Positions 43,223 through 59,870 of a DNA stretch of 64,000 bases are shown here, piece after piece. Made by a program: the position numbers and the translations under genes. The stretch spans positions 54,378-118,377 of the forward strand of contig JAEWMX010000006.1 in NCBI GenBank assembly GCA_023393065.1. Reading direction: 5' to 3'. Position 1 is the stretch's first letter. Each line of letters begins with the position of its first letter. Below the pieces are notes generated by a model. That model made no database searches and was not told where the DNA came from. It saw only the letters and a program-made list of their open reading frames with translations. This DNA comes from Bacillota bacterium. Lineage in GTDB: Bacteria > Bacillota_I > Bacilli_A > RFN20 > CAG-826.

Positions 43223-44197
43223 ATGGCACTTATCGTATCCGAATCCTGGAAGAAGAAATATCAAATTTCCGAAGAACTAAAAGACTATGCTCGCTTGATT
43301 ACTTTAGGTTCGATAAAAATCACGCCTGCCAAAATAGCCTTGAGCAATACGGGAGCTGCGATTACGACGCGAGCTCCGGTTATCGACTTGCGCGTCAAAG
43401 TGATCAAAAAGCGCATTCGCACTTACGATGGAAAAAGTATTGGCTTAACAATCTATGAGCCGAAAAATATCAAAGAGCAAAAGGCGCCCGCCATCTTATA
43501 TTTACATGGTGGCGGTTTCATGATTCGCGAGGCTAGCCATCATCACAAGGTGAGTCGCGACTACGCGGTTGGGGCTAAGGCCAAACTCGTCTTTGTCCAT
43601 TATCGCCTCGCCCCTCGCTATTCTTTTCCCTATCCGGTCGAAGATTGCTATTCGGGATTGCTGTGGCTCTATCGAAACGCCAGCAGACTCGGCATCGATA
43701 AAAATCGGATTGCAGTTGCCGGCGATAGTGCGGGAGGCGGTCTTTCGGCAGCCCTCACCCACATGAGTCGCGATCGCGGGGGACCCAAAATCTGTTTTCA
43801 AATGTTGATATATCCCGCTCTTGACCATCGCCAGAAAACAACCTCGATCAAAGAGTATTACGACGCGCCTGGATGGAATTCGCTACTTAATAAGCAAATG
43901 TGGAAGATTTACTTGAAGAACGGGCACTTTGGCATGCTCTCATATGCTTCGCCGAGCGTCTCAACATGCTTTGAACAGATACCTCCTGCCTACATCGAGG
44001 TCGGTCAGTACGATTGCCTGCGCGATGAGGGAATCGAATATGCCCAAAAACTTGAGGAGCACGGCATCGAGGCCGAACTCAATTACATCGAAGGCGCCTT
44101 TCACGCCTATGATATTATGCAGAGTAAAAATATTGTGAAAAAAGCGATGGCGAGGCGTATCGCCGCCCTTAACCGCGCTTTGCACGCATCAAAATGA
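43223..44197 (+). CDS. alpha/beta hydrolase fold-3 esterase/lipase (HSL family)
   Basis: 324 aa. Oxyanion motif HGGGF and nucleophile elbow GDSAGG. Confidence 0.8.
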   Translation: MALIVSESWKKKYQISEELKDYARLITLGSIKITPAKIALSNTGAAITTRAPVIDLRVKVIKKRIRTYDGKSIGLTIYEPKNIKEQKAPAILYLHGGGFMIREASHHHKVSRDYAVGAKAKLVFVHYRLAPRYSFPYPVEDCYSGLLWLYRNASRLGIDKNRIAVAGDSAGGGLSAALTHMSRDRGGPKICFQMLIYPALDHRQKTTSIKEYYDAPGWNSLLNKQMWKIYLKNGHFGMLSYASPSVSTCFEQIPPAYIEVGQYDCLRDEGIEYAQKLEEHGIEAELNYIEGAFHAYDIMQSKNIVKKAMARRIAALNRALHASK

Positions 44198-52115: not shown

Positions 52116-53030
52116 ATGTTCATCTTTCGACCATCGCTAAAAATCTTTAAGCGCAGTCTTGACTTATACGAATATAAACGGATACGCAAGACCAAACCTT
52201 TTGCCGAAATAAGCGGATGGAAAGACATTCCTTATATCGCCGATAATAATGTCGAACACCTCCTCGATATTTATCATCCTGTCGGCCCGCGAAACAATCA
52301 CCTCATCCTCGATATTCACGGAGGCTCTTATGCCTTTGGCTTCAAAGGTCTAAATTACATCTTCAATTCGTATTTCGTCGCCAAAGGCTTCTCTGTTGTC
52401 GCAATCAATTACACCCTCGTCAAAAAAGGTACGAGCATCTACGAGCAAGTTCTCGACATTTTCGCGGCTCTTAATTTTCTTGAAGCGAACAAGGAAAAAT
52501 ACGACTTGCCCTTAGATAACTTTATCCTCTTGGGCGATTCGGCGGGTGGTCATCTAGCTCTCTTGACTGATTTGATATTTAAATCAAAAGAAGCGCAGGA
52601 TTACTACGGCATCAAACGCCTTCCCGACATTAAAATCAAATGTGTTGCCACTAATTGTGGAGTCTATGATTTTGAGGAAGTCGTCGAATATGCCAAGCGC
52701 GTTATTCACAAGTCGGCTATGCCGTATTTATTCTCAAATAGATACCTCGAAAGAGACTTTTTGAAAATGAACAATCCGGCTTATTACATAAGAAAAGTTA
52801 AACCTGATCCCGTTTTTGTCTCTTCTTGCCATTACGACTTTCTTAAGAAGCACAGCTTTATGCTTCGCGATGAGCTTCTGAGGCAGGCGTTGACCCACCA
52901 TTATGAATTTGAACCTTCTCTCGATATCAAAATCGGCCATGTTTACAATCTCGTCTTGCCGGATAGCAAACAAGGCAAGCGCACCAACGATGCGATGGCC
53001 GAATTTTTCCTTCGCGATTTCTCGAAATAA
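52116..53030 (+). CDS. alpha/beta hydrolase (esterase/lipase family)
   Basis: 304 aa. HGGSYAFG and GDSAGGHLAL motifs. Confidence 0.75.
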   Translation: MFIFRPSLKIFKRSLDLYEYKRIRKTKPFAEISGWKDIPYIADNNVEHLLDIYHPVGPRNNHLILDIHGGSYAFGFKGLNYIFNSYFVAKGFSVVAINYTLVKKGTSIYEQVLDIFAALNFLEANKEKYDLPLDNFILLGDSAGGHLALLTDLIFKSKEAQDYYGIKRLPDIKIKCVATNCGVYDFEEVVEYAKRVIHKSAMPYLFSNRYLERDFLKMNNPAYYIRKVKPDPVFVSSCHYDFLKKHSFMLRDELLRQALTHHYEFEPSLDIKIGHVYNLVLPDSKQGKRTNDAMAEFFLRDFSK

Positions 53031-53104: not shown

Positions 53105-55714
53105 ATGAAATTAAACCAAAACCAAACGCCGTTTCTCGATGCCTTAGTCAAATACGTCAATGAAAATATATCCCCTTTTGATGTTCCCGGACACCATATG
53201 GGCAATGTCGAAAATCGCTTAAAAGATTTTTTAGGCACGAAAACTTTTCGTAGCGACGTCAATGCCCCTATCGGTCTCGATTCCCTTCAACATCCGACTG
53301 GGGTCATCGCTCAAGCCCAAGAGTTGATGGCTGATTTTACAGGCGCTGACCACAGTTACTTTTTAGTTAATGGCACGACCAGCGGCATCATCGCGATGAT
53401 TATGTCGGTTTGCAAAGCCGACGACAAAATTATCTTACCGCGCAATGTCCACAAATCGATTATCAGCGCTTTGGTGTTATCGGGTTCGATTCCGATTTAT
53501 GTAATGCCAAAAATTGATCGGCAATTAGAAATCGCCAACCAGCCGAGTCTCGAGGACTACAAGCGAGCGATTCTCCGCTATCCGAGCGCCAAGGCCATAT
53601 TGGTAATCAACCCCACTTATTTTGGTGCGGTGAGCGATCTTCGCGAAATAACCGCTTTTGCCCACGCCCACAACGTGACTGTCTTAGTTGACGAAGCTCA
53701 CGGGGCGCATTATTACTTTAGTAAAAACGGACCACTCTCGGCGATGGCCTGCGGTGCCGATCTCGCCAGCGTCTCCTTTCACAAAACGGGCGGATCCTTG
53801 ACTCAATCAAGCGTTCTTCTTTTAAAAGGCGATCGCGTTTCGCCCAGCGAAGTTCAAAAATCATTGAGTATCATCAACACGACATCGCCATCGAATATTC
53901 TAATCGCCAGCATCGATGCCGCTCGCCACTTCGCCGCGACCAAAGGCCAAGAAGCGATGGATCAAGTTCTTGAATTAGCGCAACATGCCCGCGAGCAAAT
54001 TTCGAAAATTAAAGGATTTATTCCCCGCGGCCGTGAGCACTTTTTACAAAAAGGCTGTTTTGATTATGACGAGACCAAGTTGGTAATTGAACTTGATCAT
54101 CTCGATTTGAGCGGCTTTGACCTCTACTATCTCCTTAAGGAGAAGTATCAGATTCAAGTCGAATTGGCCGAGACATATGTCGTTCTTGGAATTTTGGCCA
54201 TCGGCACCAAAAAAGAACACCTCAAGCATTTATTCTCCGCTCTAAAAGATATTAGTCGCGAGCATTATAATCGCAAAATTACTTATCCTCGCCACTCTTT
54301 TAGCGTCGGGTTCCCCTATCTTCTCGTTCGCCCTCGCTCGGCGTTTTACGCACCGAGCAAGCGAATCCCAATTATTGATGCCGCCAACGAAATATCAAAG
54401 GAATCAATCATGATTTATCCACCCGGAATCCCCTTAATTATTCCCGGTGAGATTTTTACCAACGACCTGATTGAGAGAATCAAAACATATAAGCAGACAG
54501 GAATCACGATGATCAGCGATTATAGCGACGGCACCGTAAATGTGATTGATAAAGAGCATTGGAATCGCTTCTCTTCTTATCAGAAAGCATATCAAGACTA
54601 TTCCACAAAACGCATCACGACACCACATAACGACGGCTATTCCATGCCTTTTGAGGGCGATGCCCATCAGGCGACATTCGTCCTTCTTCCTTTCCGCAAA
54701 GATACATGGCGCGAGGGAGCCAAACCTGCTCGCGAAGCATATAAAGATGTGATTCGCGCTATCGCTCATTTCGAGCCGGTCATCGTCGGTATTCATCCAA
54801 CTATTTACGATGTCGCTGCGGGTGAATTTTCGAATATTGACAATGTGAATATCATCAAAATTAAATACAACGATGCCTGGGCTCGCGACAACGCGCCAAT
54901 CTTTGTCAAGAAAGGCGCGAAAGTTCGCTCCGTTGATTTCCGTTTTAATGCCTGGAGCGGCGATGAAGGCGGACTATATTCCAATTACTTCGACGACGAT
55001 CGGCTCGCTAGCGTCTTGTCAAAGAAGCTGAACATCAGCAGTTATTATATCGAGGATTTTGTTCTGGAGGGCGGAAGCATCCATGTCGATGGTCAAGGCA
55101 CATGTCTTGTCACGGAAGCATGCCTTCTTTCCAAAGGCAGGAATCCCCACCTTAGCAAACAAGAAATTGAAGAGACGCTAAAAACCAATCTCGGCATCGG
55201 CAAAGTCATATGGCTTAAAAATGGCATTTATCAAGATGAGACGAGCGAACACGTCGATAACATGGCTTGTTTTGTCCGCCCGGGCGTGATTGCGCTAGCG
55301 TGGACCACGGATCGCAGCGACCCCCAATACAAGTATTCGCAAGATGCATATCGAGTTCTCAAGAATGAAACGGATGCCAATGGAAATCCGCTCACCATCG
55401 TCAAAGTTCGCTTGCCCAAACCAATGTACATGAGCAAGGACGAAGCAAAAGGTATTCGCGGTTCTCGATCAAACGCCAAAAAGCGCGAGCCAAACATGCG
55501 CTTGGCAGCATCTTACATCAATTACTATCAAGGCAAAGATTTTGTCATCCTTCCCGCCTTTGGCGTCAAGGAAGACAAGGCGGCTTACGACCAATTCGTG
55601 GAGCTTTATCCTGACAAAAAAGTTGTGCAAGTCAATTCTCGCGAGATACTTCTCGGGGGCGGTAACATCCACTGCATAACAATGCAAATACCTGAAGCGA
55701 AAAAAGGAGAATGA
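53105..55714 (+). CDS. bifunctional fusion: Orn/Lys/Arg decarboxylase-family arginine decarboxylase (SpeA-like, N-terminal ~500 aa) fused to agmatine deiminase (AguA, C-terminal ~365 aa)
   Basis: Single 869-aa ORF. N-terminal half colinear with Bacillus-type SpeA (PGHHMG, SFHKTGGSLTQSS PLP-lysine region). C-terminal half has AguA motifs (YSMPFEGDAHQATFV, GGGNIHCITMQ catalytic Cys). Confidence 0.85.
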   Translation: MKLNQNQTPFLDALVKYVNENISPFDVPGHHMGNVENRLKDFLGTKTFRSDVNAPIGLDSLQHPTGVIAQAQELMADFTGADHSYFLVNGTTSGIIAMIMSVCKADDKIILPRNVHKSIISALVLSGSIPIYVMPKIDRQLEIANQPSLEDYKRAILRYPSAKAILVINPTYFGAVSDLREITAFAHAHNVTVLVDEAHGAHYYFSKNGPLSAMACGADLASVSFHKTGGSLTQSSVLLLKGDRVSPSEVQKSLSIINTTSPSNILIASIDAARHFAATKGQEAMDQVLELAQHAREQISKIKGFIPRGREHFLQKGCFDYDETKLVIELDHLDLSGFDLYYLLKEKYQIQVELAETYVVLGILAIGTKKEHLKHLFSALKDISREHYNRKITYPRHSFSVGFPYLLVRPRSAFYAPSKRIPIIDAANEISKESIMIYPPGIPLIIPGEIFTNDLIERIKTYKQTGITMISDYSDGTVNVIDKEHWNRFSSYQKAYQDYSTKRITTPHNDGYSMPFEGDAHQATFVLLPFRKDTWREGAKPAREAYKDVIRAIAHFEPVIVGIHPTIYDVAAGEFSNIDNVNIIKIKYNDAWARDNAPIFVKKGAKVRSVDFRFNAWSGDEGGLYSNYFDDDRLASVLSKKLNISSYYIEDFVLEGGSIHVDGQGTCLVTEACLLSKGRNPHLSKQEIEETLKTNLGIGKVIWLKNGIYQDETSEHVDNMACFVRPGVIALAWTTDRSDPQYKYSQDAYRVLKNETDANGNPLTIVKVRLPKPMYMSKDEAKGIRGSRSNAKKREPNMRLAASYINYYQGKDFVILPAFGVKEDKAAYDQFVELYPDKKVVQVNSREILLGGGNIHCITMQIPEAKKGE

Positions 55715-56580
55715 CGAATATGAAAGTTGCCATAACCCAGTTTAAAATGTCGTGGAATATTGAAGAAAACCTCTCAAAAGCTGAACAAATGGTTCGAAAA
55801 GCAGCACAAAAAGGCGCGCAAATAATTCTTCTTCCTGAACTTTTCAAAACTCCGTATTTTTGCCAAAAGGAAAATTATGACTACTTCGACTTAGCGGAAG
55901 AAAGCGAATCCTCACCGACGATTTCGCGCTTTCAGAAATTGGCCGCAGAACTGAATGTCGTCTTGCCAATATCCTTTTTTGAAAAATCCGGCAATGTCCA
56001 TTTTAACTCTTTAGTCATGATTGATTCCGACGGCAAGAATCTAGGCTTATATCGCAAGTCGCACATTCCGACTGGAGAATGTTATGAGGAAAAATTTTAT
56101 TTTTCGCCAGGCGACACCGGCTTCAAAGTATTTAAAACAAAATGCGGGCGAATCGGAGTCGGCATTTGCTGGGACCAATGGTTTCCGGAAGTGGCGCGAA
56201 GCCTCGCCTTGCTCGGAGCCCAACTTATCGTCTATCCAACCGCAATCGGAAGCGAGCCGGTTCTCCCTAAAGATTCCAAAGATCACTGGCAGAATACTAT
56301 GCGTGGGCATGCAGCGGCCAATATCATTCCGGTCTTAGCTTCAAACCGCATCGGAACCGAATCTGATAAGGACTCGGCCATGACCTTTTTTGGCAGTAGT
56401 TTTATCGCTGATGAAGATGGCAATATCGCCGTCGAGTTGTCGCGCGATGAAGAAAATATTGCCATTGCCGAATTCGATTTGAAGAGCATTGACAAAAAGC
56501 GTATCTCTTGGGGCGTCTTTCGCGATCGCCGCCCGGATTTATATGGAAGCATCATCAATTTTGATGATTCAAAGAAGTAA
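55711..56580 (+). CDS. aguB: N-carbamoylputrescine amidohydrolase (nitrilase/CN-hydrolase family)
   Basis: 289 aa. Catalytic triad context (LPELF, RKSH, GICWDQWFPE). Overlaps the stop of the fusion gene. Confidence 0.85.
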   Translation: MTNMKVAITQFKMSWNIEENLSKAEQMVRKAAQKGAQIILLPELFKTPYFCQKENYDYFDLAEESESSPTISRFQKLAAELNVVLPISFFEKSGNVHFNSLVMIDSDGKNLGLYRKSHIPTGECYEEKFYFSPGDTGFKVFKTKCGRIGVGICWDQWFPEVARSLALLGAQLIVYPTAIGSEPVLPKDSKDHWQNTMRGHAAANIIPVLASNRIGTESDKDSAMTFFGSSFIADEDGNIAVELSRDEENIAIAEFDLKSIDKKRISWGVFRDRRPDLYGSIINFDDSKK

Positions 56581-56585
56581 CTGAC

Positions 56586-57029
56586 ATGGGCATTCACGCC
56601 TTTTTAGCCGGTGCAAATGCCGTCTGCTTTCTTAAAAACAAACATAAGTACGCGATGATTTGCGCATGGGCGACAATGATTGATTACGATGTTGTGGGAC
56701 TCCTGATTGGCGAGCAGAGCGTCACTGGCAAAAACTTGGAAGTAGGAATGATGATTGGCGTATCTGCCCTCAGCAAAGAACAAAAAGACATCGCCATCAC
56801 TTTCGGCAATAATCACAGCGATGAAGTAGATAAATTTGCGAATGTTCCTCATGAAATCGATGAGAGCGCCATTCTTATTAAAAACGCCAAAAACAATCTC
56901 GTGTGCAAAATTGAAAATATTATGCGTTTGAACGCCGAAAACGACGATTTATTTGTCGTCGCTAAATTCGTGAGAACGAAAGAGGATAAAGCAAAAGATT
57001 TTCTTGAGGCTGAAGAAGTTTTTCGCTAA
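56586..57029 (+). CDS. flavin reductase-like (FMN-binding split-barrel) domain protein
   Basis: 147 aa. MICAWATMIDYD... pattern typical of Flavin_Reduct family proteins. Confidence 0.55.
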   Translation: MGIHAFLAGANAVCFLKNKHKYAMICAWATMIDYDVVGLLIGEQSVTGKNLEVGMMIGVSALSKEQKDIAITFGNNHSDEVDKFANVPHEIDESAILIKNAKNNLVCKIENIMRLNAENDDLFVVAKFVRTKEDKAKDFLEAEEVFR

Positions 57030-57400
57030 TGGTTTTTGTCTTTAATCAGGGCTTCGATTTTTTTAAAGGTTTCTTCTGACAATACATGCTCGATCAAGCA
57101 GCAGTCGCGATCGGCATTTTTTTCTGAGACGCCAAGACTAAGCAAATATTTCTTTAAAGTCGTGTGGCGGTGGTAGACCCTTTTGGCGATCCTTTTCCCT
57201 GCCGGAGTGAATTCGATTTCTGAATAGGGCGTCTTGTTGATGAAACCTAAACGCAGGAGTTCGTGTGTGGCTTTGTTGACGGCGGGACGAGAGACATTGA
57301 GCAAGCGTGAAACACGAGCAGATTCCAAGGGTTCTTTATTTTTATAAAGAATATAGAATGCCTCCAAGTAATCTTCGATTGCTTTGCTCGTTTTTTTCAT
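57026..57400 (-). CDS. DtxR/MntR family metal-dependent transcriptional regulator
   Basis: 124 aa. N-terminal HTH (ARVSRLLNVSRPAVNKATHELLRLGF) and metal-binding dimerisation region. Divergent from feoAB. Confidence 0.8.
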   Translation of the reverse strand: MKKTSKAIEDYLEAFYILYKNKEPLESARVSRLLNVSRPAVNKATHELLRLGFINKTPYSEIEFTPAGKRIAKRVYHRHTTLKKYLLSLGVSEKNADRDCCLIEHVLSEETFKKIEALIKDKNH

Positions 57401-57484
57401 ATGAGAATTCCTATGTAAACGCTACCATTATAGCACTAGTAAAAAGCGAATACAAAAAAAGTTAACCAAGGTTTACAATTCAGG

Positions 57485-57513
57485 TTGACTTAGCCATTTT
57501 GGCAACTTAATAT
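57485..57513 (+). promoter_or_regulatory. sigma-A-like promoter TTGACT-17-TAATAT upstream of feoA
   Basis: Read from the sequence. Confidence 0.45.
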
Positions 57514-57546
57514 ATATGCAGCCATTAATCATGGTCGAGAAATCCA

Positions 57547-57837
57547 ATGCAAGCACAAAATAGACATCGTCACGGACAGAGAATGCGCCTCCAAGTTGGT
57601 CAGGAAGGTCATTTAAGCGACCTTGAGCGAGGCCAAAAAGCGATTGTTCTCGACTTTCATAACGACAACGCCGTCTTGCGTCGGCGTTTGCTTGATATGG
57701 GAATTACCAAAGGCGTTGAAATCGAAATCAAAAAGATTGCTCCTCTTGGTGATCCTGTCGACATTCGCCTCCGTGGCTACGAGTTGTGCATACGCCGTAA
57801 GGACATGCGCTCAATCGATATAAAGGTAGTGGAATAG
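57547..57837 (+). CDS. feoA: FeoA family protein (with N-terminal His/Arg/Gln-rich extension)
   Basis: SH3-like FeoA core (LSDLERGQKAIVLDF...). The start may be the later ATG at 57583. Confidence 0.75.
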   Translation: MQAQNRHRHGQRMRLQVGQEGHLSDLERGQKAIVLDFHNDNAVLRRRLLDMGITKGVEIEIKKIAPLGDPVDIRLRGYELCIRRKDMRSIDIKVVE

Positions 57838-57839
57838 CA

Positions 57840-59870
57840 ATGAAAGTAGCATTGGTAGGAAACCAAAACTCAGGTAAGACTACCCTGTTTAATACATTGA
57901 CGGGATCTAATCAAAAAGTTGGCAACTGGCCGGGTGTCACGATTGAGCGAAAAGAAGGCACGATAATCGATACTAATATCGAAATTATCGATTTACCTGG
58001 CGTTTATTCTCTCTCGCCTTATTCGTCGGAAGAGGAAATATCTCGCCAATTTGTCATGGAAGAAAAGCCCGATCTCATCATCAACATCATCGATGCCACC
58101 AGCCTTGAAAGAAGCCTCTATCTAACCACTCAACTCTTAGAACTCGATATTGATGTCGTCATCGCATTAAATATGGCCGATGTTTTAGAAAAAAGCGGCA
58201 TAACCGTCGATGTCGAGAAACTGTCAAAGCGCCTAAACACGACCATTGTCTCAATCTCGGCGAAAAAGAATCTCGGAATTAAACAATTGATTTCCGTCGT
58301 CAAGTCCGGAGAATATAAAAAGAATCACCAAGATTATATCTATGATGAAGAAATTGAAAATGTAATCTCAAATATAGCGAGGTTAATCAGTGTCGGTCAT
58401 AAACGATTTGCGGCCGTCAAGATCATTGAACGAGACCGCGATTATCGCCCTCTTTTAACTGACGAAATAAATGCGCAAATCGAGATATTGGAATATAACT
58501 ACAATATGGATAGCGAACAGCTGATTGCCGATCAGCGCTATCGGCACATCGTCCGCATTAAAAAGGAATGTTCGACTCAAGAAGAAAAAGGCGATACGAT
58601 CACTGATAAATTAGATCGCATCTTTTTGCACAAAATTTTTGGTCTCCCAATCTTCGCTTTAATCATGGGCATTGTCTATTTTCTTTCGGTTGGCCTTATC
58701 GGAGGCTTGACCGTCGACTTTGTCGGAGCCTTATTTGATGGTTCAGAAACAATAAATGTTTTGGGGCGCGAGATGACGTTTGTCATAGCCGGTCTTGGTC
58801 CGACGCTGAGTGGTTGGTTGACGAGCATTGGTGCAAGTCCGTGGTCCGTTTCGCTCGTCGTCGACGGAATTATCGCCGGGTTTGGAGCGGTGAGCAGCTT
58901 TCTCCCACAACTCATCATTTTATTTCTGTGTCTCGCCCTGCTTGAAACGACAGGCTACATGTCGCGCATCTCTTTCTTTCTCGATCGCATCTTTAAGCGC
59001 TTCGGATTAAGTGGAAAATCACTCATCCCCTTTATCGTCGGAAGCGGGTGTAGCGTTCCGGGTATCATGGCTTCTCGAACCGTAGAAAGCGAAGAAGAGC
59101 GGAAGATGACGGTCATGCTCACACCATTTGTGCCTTGCTCAGCAAAACTTCCCATCATCGCTCTTTTCGCCGGATATTTCTTTTCCTCTCTTGCTTGGCT
59201 CGTGACTCTGACCCTCTATTTTATGGCGATTGCCGTCATTCTCCTTTCAGCGCTTATCTTAAAAAAATTCATCTATAAAGGGGCCACTTCTTCATATTTG
59301 TCGGAACTGCCAAATTACCACGCGCCGAGCGCCTTATATGTTTTTCGCGATGTCTTTGATAAAACTTGGTCGTTTATTAAAAGGGCCGGAACGGTTATTG
59401 TGCTCTGCTCGGTGGCTGTCTGGTTTTTAGCCTCTTTCACCTGGTCGTTCAATTACATCGATGGTGTCAATTATCATATCGAAAATAGCATTTTAGCTGG
59501 AATCGGTAATGCTTTTGCTTGGATTTTCTATCCGATGCTCGGCGGAACTTGGTCGTGGGGCGCTACCGTATCGGCCATTCAAGGACTGATTGCCAAGGAA
59601 CAAGTTGTCAGCTCGCTTGAGGTTATTGCCGGTCTCGAAGGTGGAGGCTCAACGGTTTTTGAAAGCGGCATCTTCTCCTTCTTTAATAGCTGGAATGCCT
59701 ATGCTTATATGATTTTTAATTTATTCAGCGCACCTTGTTTCGCGGCAATCGGCGCGATGCGCAAAGAACTAGGATCGACCAAAGGCATGTTCAAAGCCGT
59801 CTTCTTTCAGACTGGCATCGCCTGGGTTCTCGCCACTTTCGTCGGTATGATCGGATGGCTTATCGTATGA
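57840..59870 (+). CDS. feoB: ferrous iron transporter B
   Basis: 676 aa. N-terminal G-domain (GNQNSGKTTLFN, DLPG) plus C-terminal multi-TM nucleoside-recognition-type domains. Confidence 0.9.
   Translation: MKVALVGNQNSGKTTLFNTLTGSNQKVGNWPGVTIERKEGTIIDTNIEIIDLPGVYSLSPYSSEEEISRQFVMEEKPDLIINIIDATSLERSLYLTTQLLELDIDVVIALNMADVLEKSGITVDVEKLSKRLNTTIVSISAKKNLGIKQLISVVKSGEYKKNHQDYIYDEEIENVISNIARLISVGHKRFAAVKIIERDRDYRPLLTDEINAQIEILEYNYNMDSEQLIADQRYRHIVRIKKECSTQEEKGDTITDKLDRIFLHKIFGLPIFALIMGIVYFLSVGLIGGLTVDFVGALFDGSETINVLGREMTFVIAGLGPTLSGWLTSIGASPWSVSLVVDGIIAGFGAVSSFLPQLIILFLCLALLETTGYMSRISFFLDRIFKRFGLSGKSLIPFIVGSGCSVPGIMASRTVESEEERKMTVMLTPFVPCSAKLPIIALFAGYFFSSLAWLVTLTLYFMAIAVILLSALILKKFIYKGATSSYLSELPNYHAPSALYVFRDVFDKTWSFIKRAGTVIVLCSVAVWFLASFTWSFNYIDGVNYHIENSILAGIGNAFAWIFYPMLGGTWSWGATVSAIQGLIAKEQVVSSLEVIAGLEGGGSTVFESGIFSFFNSWNAYAYMIFNLFSAPCFAAIGAMRKELGSTKGMFKAVFFQTGIAWVLATFVGMIGWLIV

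Follow-up and report, generated by a model that had tools for sequence, protein, structure and literature searches.

A predicted decarboxylase–agmatine deiminase fusion protein of the polyamine pathway in uncultured Bacilli

The sequence analyzed here is a 64,000 nt stretch of contig JAEWMX010000006.1 (positions 54,378–118,377, forward strand) from the Bacillota bacterium assembly GCA_023393065.1, and is referred to as the window. At window positions 53105–55714 on the + strand it contains a single open reading frame of 869 amino acids plus stop, in which a decarboxylase is joined through a linker to an agmatine deiminase. The open reading frame has 0 internal stops. Analysis of the 869 aa sequence by Pfam shows OKR_DC_1 at positions 8–322 (E-value = 1e-73), OKR_DC_1_C at positions 373–454 and PAD_porph at positions 514–863 (E-value = 6e-107). 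Both modules are complete and the catalytic residues of both are present, as the initial annotation of this DNA had proposed from the sequence. The two motifs it had singled out are also found in the protein, i.e. SFHKTGGSLTQSS, which contains the lysine K227, and GGGNIHCITMQ, which contains the cysteine C857. A GC anomaly of the gene, hinted at by a sliding profile, was dropped, as the GC content is 46.6% and that of the window 45.6%.

The decarboxylase module is at aa positions 1–481 (nt 53105–54547, + strand) and consists of OKR_DC_1 and OKR_DC_1_C. It is a short ‘ancestral-form’ Orn/Lys/Arg decarboxylase of the aspartate aminotransferase (AAT) fold and is putatively an arginine decarboxylase (ADC). 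Decarboxylases of the short form are about 480–490 aa in length and have no N-terminal receiver domain; in the fusion protein nothing is found N-terminal of OKR_DC_1. The motifs N89-G-T-x-S-G, D196-E-A-H and H226-K227 are invariant in 121 fusion sequences. K227 (codon at nt 53783–53785, + strand), in the sequence SFHK, matches the HK motif in alignments with 2X3L and LdcC and is the predicted lysine that forms the Schiff base with pyridoxal phosphate (PLP). Foldseek searches with the predicted N-terminal half of the protein return LdcI, AdiA and 2X3L.

The agmatine deiminase module is at aa positions 504–869 (nt 54614–55711, + strand) and displays the PAD_porph domain (PF04371). It scores 443.3 bits on the TIGR03380 aguA model, where the cut-off is 381.8, and residues 505–863 cover model positions 1–356 of 357. 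The module is approximately 42% identical to the plant and bacterial agmatine iminohydrolase (AIH) structures and gives 318 bits with Arabidopsis AIH (3H7C/1VKP). Positions D94, H224, D226 and C366 of AIH align with D595, H716, D718 and C857 of the fusion protein. In the Arabidopsis enzyme C366 is the nucleophile, H224 and D226 are the His/Asp pair and D94 is the guanidinium-binding Asp; C857 (codon at nt 55673–55675, + strand) is thus the predicted catalytic nucleophile of the module. H716, D718 and C857 are invariant in the 121 fusion proteins, while the conservation of D595 is 90% or higher. The AlphaFold2 (AF2) model of the module matches the pentein fold of solved agmatine deiminases: the Foldseek hits of the predicted C-terminal half include the agmatine deiminases 3H7C and 1VKP (TM 0.94–0.95, rmsd about 1.6 Å), and comparison of the predicted deiminase with 3H7C, 1VKP and 2JER gives target TM values of 0.93–0.95 with an rmsd of 1.5–2.2 Å. 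The module is a complete agmatine deiminase with its catalytic residues kept, and is predicted to hydrolyze agmatine to N-carbamoylputrescine.

The fusion gene is followed by aguB, which as the longest open reading frame is at nt 55711–56580 on the + strand (289 aa from the first ATG) and displays the CN_hydrolase domain. Its assignment as N-carbamoylputrescine amidohydrolase (NCPAH), made in the initial annotation, agrees with a score of 448.8 bits on the N-carbamoylputrescine amidase model TIGR03381 (cut-off 410.25). The AguB sequence aligns end to end with Medicago NCPAH 5H8I (338 bits), and the Glu/Lys/Cys triad of the nitrilase superfamily is conserved as E43, K116 and C153. The two genes had been described as overlapping by 4 nt (ATGA). 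This is true of the longest open reading frame, however the true start is more probably at nt 55720, which is 5 nt past the fusion stop codon and leaves no overlap. A GGAG Shine-Dalgarno sequence, read from the sequence at nt 55706–55709 (+ strand) within the 3′ end of the fusion gene, is 1 nt from the ATG at 55711 and 10 nt, an ideal spacing, from the ATG at 55720, and most AguB homologs begin to align at residue 4; the start at 55720 is favored for these two reasons.

The fusion protein is probably a bifunctional enzyme of polyamine biosynthesis that converts arginine to N-carbamoylputrescine. The N-terminal PLP-dependent, SpeA-type short-form decarboxylase would form agmatine from L-arginine, and the C-terminal agmatine deiminase would convert agmatine to N-carbamoylputrescine and ammonia. 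The AguB product of the tightly linked gene would then yield putrescine, CO2 and ammonia. The fusion may derive from a SpeA-type gene, the nearest unfused relatives of which pair with agmatinase or metK, and it would ensure that the two activities are expressed 1:1 and stay close together. A three-activity route from arginine to putrescine in two genes had been proposed at the outset. The part of this proposal that concerns AguA and AguB stands, and both pass the equivalog cut-offs, whereas we infer that the substrate is arginine, that the role is biosynthetic and not catabolic, and that the fusion may bring a kinetic advantage.

The SpeA homology stops near residue 481 and the AguA homology begins near residue 504. 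Between them is the linker, DKEHWNRFSSYQKAYQDYSTKR, at aa positions 482–503 (nt 54548–54613, + strand). The initial annotation had placed the linker at about residues 490–505; it exists, but lies slightly upstream of that position. Linker residue W486 is invariant in the family alignment. The AF2 model displays two helices in the linker, at positions 487–491 and 493–502, with a pLDDT of about 88–92. Nonsynonymous divergence (pN) between close relatives is 0.03–0.19 in the linker-containing segment, residues 471–512, where synonymous divergence (pS) is 0.72–1.03. The values are alike in the decarboxylase, the linker-containing segment and the deiminase (pN 0.03–0.19, pS 0.6–1.0); pN and pS are given in place of dN/dS as synonymous sites are saturated. 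Purifying selection is strong on all three segments.

Relatives of the fusion protein were sought among 5.8 billion proteins. The best 120 matches, from NCBI, JGI, ENA and Logan assemblies, are uniformly 860–900 aa in length, have both Pfam domains and are 62%–92% identical to the window protein. Full-length homologs of 860–900 aa are found in more than 120 protein clusters, and these carry OKR_DC_1 and PAD_porph together, which answers the domain-architecture search that the initial annotation had suggested. In a 50% clustering of 15 billion proteins the intact fusion stands essentially as one representative, P0121. In addition, GTDB species-representative genomes were screened with a probe built from the junction region alone. 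The probe is found in 36 genomes, and in 35 of the 36 the decarboxylase and deiminase are in one frame. All 32 loci that cover the whole gene display an uninterrupted open reading frame of 869–888 aa, and in three truncated loci the reading frame is continuous across the junction. There is therefore no stop codon or frameshift between the modules, as originally read.

An artefactual fusion, by a missed stop codon, a frameshift or a chimeric assembly, with two genes in reality, has a negligible likelihood, and nothing in its favor was found. The 32 complete loci are independent, i.e. they come from different studies and different assemblers, and their unbroken open reading frames exclude an assembly or sequencing error by comparison and not by reads; the >120 protein clusters point the same way. 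The conservation of the linker, with its invariant Trp and low pN, also argues against an artefact, and a separate aguA would have neither a start codon nor the context of a ribosome binding site.

All 36 GTDB genomes are metagenome-assembled genomes (MAGs) of uncultured organisms, labeled Bacilli, Erysipelotrichaceae, ‘Mollicutes’, Bacillota and similar, and they come from gut, rumen, faecal and digester-type samples. One of the 36, Ca. Fiminaster equi, belongs to GTDB order RFN20, family CAG-826 (PMC8957277). The closest relative of the window is ‘Bacillales bacterium UBA1424’ (L001), where the decarboxylase part is 93% identical and the gene order is the same. Decarboxylase modules were compared in a neighbor-joining (NJ) tree, where all 100 bootstrap replicates place the fusion proteins in one clade. 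The fusion therefore has a single origin, in one uncultured lineage of Bacilli that belongs at least partly to order RFN20. An aguB homolog begins within about 13 nt of the fusion stop codon in all GTDB loci long enough to include this position, and the pair of fusion gene and aguB is kept in an unrelated neighborhood (L043).

In the NJ tree the unfused decarboxylases nearest to the fusion clade group with it at 79% bootstrap, and this group contains P0125. P0125 is the nearest unfused relative with a visible context, and it overlaps an agmatinase gene (TIGR01230, 277.7 bits; cut-off 174.3). The unfused sisters P0127 and P0129 follow metK, and a more distant relative, P0130, is located in the order speD-decarboxylase-speE-speB. 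The closest unfused AguA proteins, with about 50% identity, are encoded by aguA-aguB pairs with no adjacent decarboxylase (L035:10013–11991 and L040:6001–7970). The AguA of L035 shares the motif LLPFRKD that was used as the junction probe. An unfused, adjacent speA-aguA, i.e. a direct precursor of the fusion, was not found among the relatives examined. Among the distant matches P0225, P0213, P0148 and P0267 there are a 754 aa protein with an unannotated N-terminus of 400 residues followed by PAD_porph (P0225, L045:580–2844), a 556 aa protein with 5-formyl-THF cyclo-ligase and PAD_porph, a 734 aa protein with an NNMT/PNMT-type methyltransferase and OKR_DC_1, and a 2469 aa protein that has an OKR_DC_1 module at residues 129–604.

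P0122 (863 aa, L037:8001–10592) is nested in the fusion clade with 87% bootstrap. Its decarboxylase is intact and 63% identical to that of the window, however in its PAD-like C-terminal domain, which gives only 28.8 bits in Pfam, the catalytic Cys and the WARD motif are both lost. The sequence downstream of P0122 is a tmRNA and not aguB. This tmRNA is missed by ARAGORN and is detected by Rfam with an E-value of 6e-10, below the gathering score, as the contig end cuts it. The joint loss of the AguA catalytic motifs and of an adjacent aguB is as expected if AguA and AguB process the product of the decarboxylase.

Three anchors were used for the decarboxylase module. These are the B. subtilis-group SpeA (P0272, checked to be 99%–100% identical to entries named arginine decarboxylase), a Fusobacteriaceae-type protein with OKR_DC_1 and Arginase domains (P0139, aODC type), and the S. 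aureus YaaO-type structure 2X3L. A Thermoanaerobacterium protein, P0128 (45% identity, 485 aa), was dropped as an anchor for ornithine/lysine decarboxylase (O/LDC), as the characterized enzyme is WP_013298087 (495 aa). The module is colinear with Bacillus-type SpeA, as had been noted from the sequence: the alignment covers residues 3–481 with 41% identity and 381 bits.

Several observations weigh against the reading of the protein as an enzyme that acts on arginine. The identity of the module to the Fusobacteriaceae-type aODC is also 41% (about 380 bits), i.e. the same as to SpeA. In the NJ tree SpeA and aODC form a clade that contains no fusion proteins (100% bootstrap), and the same tree is the basis for the sister relationships of the fusion, in which the group with P0125 has 79% support. 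An equivalog model of the short-form ADC is lacking in NCBIfam. The short ‘ancestral-form’ SpeA homologs comprise ADC, ornithine decarboxylase (ODC), lysine decarboxylase (LDC), bifunctional O/LDC and YaaO-type paralogs that are not polyamine enzymes (Li et al. 2021, PMC8503589). Three precedents from the same study show that substrate inference from context can fail. In Fusobacterium a decarboxylase with a fused agmatinase-like domain acts as an ODC, and the partner domain is dead; C. botulinum has AIH and NCPAH, yet its short decarboxylase is ODC-specific; and Leptospirillum has an LDC beside speD/speE (PMC8503589). Homology does not fix the substrate as that of an ADC or an ODC, because the module is 41% identical to both and because the SpeA/aODC clade excludes the fusion.

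Arginine specificity is nevertheless quite probable, and four lines of context favor it. Throughout the clade, both the fused AguA and the neighboring AguB remain intact and under constraint, unlike the dead arginase domain of Fusobacterium. The nearest unfused decarboxylases stand in polyamine contexts where their neighbors are visible. The fusion gene and aguB stay joined in the unrelated neighborhood of L043. Decay of AguA in P0122 coincides with the absence of an adjacent aguB. These lines bear on the reading that the module is an ornithine (or ornithine/lysine) decarboxylase, with AguA and AguB scavenging external agmatine, so that two routes converge on putrescine. Agmatine is plausibly available in gut habitats, which is a point in favor of such scavenging, and the equal identity to aODC and SpeA, together with C. 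botulinum (AIH, NCPAH and ODC) and the Fusobacterium fusion as precedents (PMC8503589), agrees with it as well. However the partner domain in Fusobacterium is dead, whereas the AguA catalytic residues are conserved across the 121 fusion sequences. Next to the fusion genes there is no agmatine transporter, the nearest unfused relative pairs with agmatinase, and in P0122 the decay of AguA goes together with the lack of an adjacent aguB. An ODC with separate scavenging of agmatine is therefore considered unlikely.

The neighborhood of the gene bears on a further reading of the N-terminal module, namely that it is YaaO-like, another PLP enzyme outside polyamine metabolism, or an inactive scaffold. 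The immediate and conserved neighbors across the loci are housekeeping genes, i.e. coaD, metG, rsmI, yaaT, holB, tmk and a pseudouridine synthase. In L007 and L012 the flanks contain metG ... rsmI, yaaT/PSP1, holB, tmk, recR and ybaB. This neighborhood, with metG, rsmI, yaaT, holB and tmk, resembles the yaaO-tmk...metS region of B. subtilis, which would agree with a YaaO-like module. Many SpeA homologs are indeed not polyamine enzymes, and YaaO sits directly upstream of tmk (PMC8503589). However at L012 recR precedes tmk, with no decarboxylase between them, and the fusion module is not upstream of tmk. Its identity to the YaaO-type 2X3L is only 30% (150 bits), versus 41% (about 380 bits) for either SpeA or aODC. 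In addition, the PLP-binding motifs are invariant and the module is joined to a polyamine enzyme. A YaaO-type identity is rejected on the alignment and on the position of recR, and the reading as a whole, scaffold included, is very improbable.

The route from arginine to putrescine uses one proton and yields two molecules each of ammonia and CO2. It could thus serve mainly in catabolism, pH homeostasis (through proton use and ammonia) or nitrogen release and not in polyamine biosynthesis. Homologs of SpeD, SpeE and SpeB are absent from the window and the fusion loci in tblastn searches with queries from L042, in which the carboxyspermidine route was not specifically searched; this absence of spermidine-synthesis genes counts against a biosynthetic role and for a catabolic one. 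P. aeruginosa employs aguBA in agmatine utilization (PMC4287709), which is counted on the same side. However no putrescine carbamoyltransferase, carbamate kinase or antiporter (arginine/agmatine) is found near the fusion, where the genes within about 20 kb were annotated. The hallmark of the ATP-yielding catabolic agmatine deiminase (AgDI) system, i.e. aguA with putrescine carbamoyltransferase, carbamate kinase and an agmatine/putrescine antiporter, is thus absent from the fusion locus, which argues against such a system, while the presence of AguB indicates a hydrolytic route of the biosynthetic type. The neighbors are housekeeping genes, and the sister decarboxylases are located in biosynthetic contexts with metK, speD, speE or speB. 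A mainly catabolic or pH-related role is accordingly improbable, slightly more so than an ODC activity of the module.

The other genes examined in the window display no relation to the polyamine route. Upstream of the fusion gene, at nt 52116–53030 on the + strand, is an alpha/beta-hydrolase gene (BD-FAE/Abhydrolase_3 by Pfam), the membership of which in the transcription unit is uncertain. In 19 loci the gene immediately before the fusion is a homolog, with 29%–82% identity. A second Abhydrolase_3 gene is located in the window at 43223–44197. A flavin-reductase-like gene (Pfam Flavin_Reduct, nt 56586–57029, + strand) starts 5 nt after aguB. Only the closest relatives (5 loci) have it at this place; it is probably co-transcribed with aguB but outside of the conserved unit. 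After it, within window positions 56586–59870, there are a divergent gene for a putative DtxR/MntR-type metal repressor and putative feoA-feoB, called by eye from the translations and not by HMM. A patatin-like gene, a pseudouridine synthase and a DUF1538 membrane protein are farther downstream. Scans for consensus promoters and terminators gave nothing convincing for operon boundaries. A flavin-containing amine oxidoreductase gene (Amino_oxidase; L011, positions 174–1754, - strand, with homologs in 8 loci) is located about 7 kb upstream of the fusion in several loci. A tie of this gene to polyamine oxidation is conceivable.

Related to the possible function of the linker, the AF2 model of the whole fusion protein, made from the 121-sequence alignment, has a pLDDT of 88.5 and a pTM of 0.80. 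The pTM exceeds that given by one well-predicted domain of 480 residues out of 869, and from this value we infer that the decarboxylase and deiminase are held in a confidently fixed mutual arrangement. The Foldseek matches of the model include no solved structure that spans both halves. A more speculative possibility is that the helical linker locks the two modules so that agmatine passes between the active sites without equilibration in the cytoplasm, as in a natural channelling enzyme. The only pointers toward channelling, which the initial annotation had already suggested, are the pTM of 0.80 and the structured, conserved linker, and the idea is a tentative one. In the case of channelling, P0122 might represent, just as tentatively, a lineage after loss of the later steps, in which the pseudo-deiminase has been kept as a structural appendage.

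The three enzyme families of this system, and its presumed chemistry, are those of a separate SpeA of the B. subtilis type with AguA (AIH) and AguB (NCPAH). The system differs in that steps one and two are on one polypeptide with a conserved, structured linker, and in that the decarboxylase clade is apart from SpeA. The Fusobacterium nucleatum protein WP_005898385 (783 aa; PMC8503589) likewise has an N-terminal short-form AAT-fold decarboxylase followed by a C-terminal domain of an agmatine- or arginine-processing family, and is of similar size. P0139, whose decarboxylase part is 41% identical to that of the window, has the same architecture as the F. nucleatum protein. However the C-terminal domain in F. 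nucleatum is of the Arginase fold and is dead, with degenerate Mn ligands, and the decarboxylase is an ODC, whereas here the domain is PAD_porph with intact catalytic residues. The two kinds of fusion are independent, because their decarboxylase clades are separate with 100% bootstrap. The pseudo-deiminase of P0122 is a counterpart of the dead arginase domain in the Fusobacterium aODC protein.

An aguA-aguB fusion in a Ca. Diapherotrites archaeon (PMC10407285) also joins consecutive enzymes of the branch from agmatine to putrescine. It differs in combining steps two and three instead of one and two, in belonging to another domain of life, and in that the ADC there is a pyruvoyl enzyme derived from SpeD. 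Unfused operons, i.e. speA-speB (L039) and speD-speA-speE-speB (Mycoplasmatota CP074575, L042), contain the nearest decarboxylases without a fusion, which are 44%–48% identical, in a polyamine context with an agmatine-consuming enzyme. In these operons an agmatinase, which acts in one step with release of urea, is in place of AguA and AguB and there is no fusion.

The initial annotation had not recognized the fusion as a standard annotated architecture, and the databases bear this out, as they name one half only: the NCBI name is ‘agmatine deiminase’ and the JGI name ‘lysine decarboxylase’. No mention of an ADC-AguA fusion was found in the full-text literature, including the papers on polyamine evolution that treat the aODC-arginase and aguA-aguB fusions; most subscription journals are outside of this scope. 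The domain architecture is previously undescribed as far as this literature extends, and it is confined to an uncultured clade. The enzymes, the pathway and the chemistry are well known, and the advance is incremental.

If confirmed, the protein would provide a natural two-step enzyme, from arginine to N-carbamoylputrescine, for the study of agmatine channelling. The fusion would also serve as a sequence-independent marker of arginine specificity in a family where homology cannot separate ADC, ODC and LDC, and P0122 would be a second case of a short-form decarboxylase that retains a dead partner domain. The annotation would be corrected across an entire clade of uncultured Bacilli from gut, rumen and digester. 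The putrescine-making capacity of this clade is hidden by single-function names, which bears on metagenomic inference of polyamine production in the gut.

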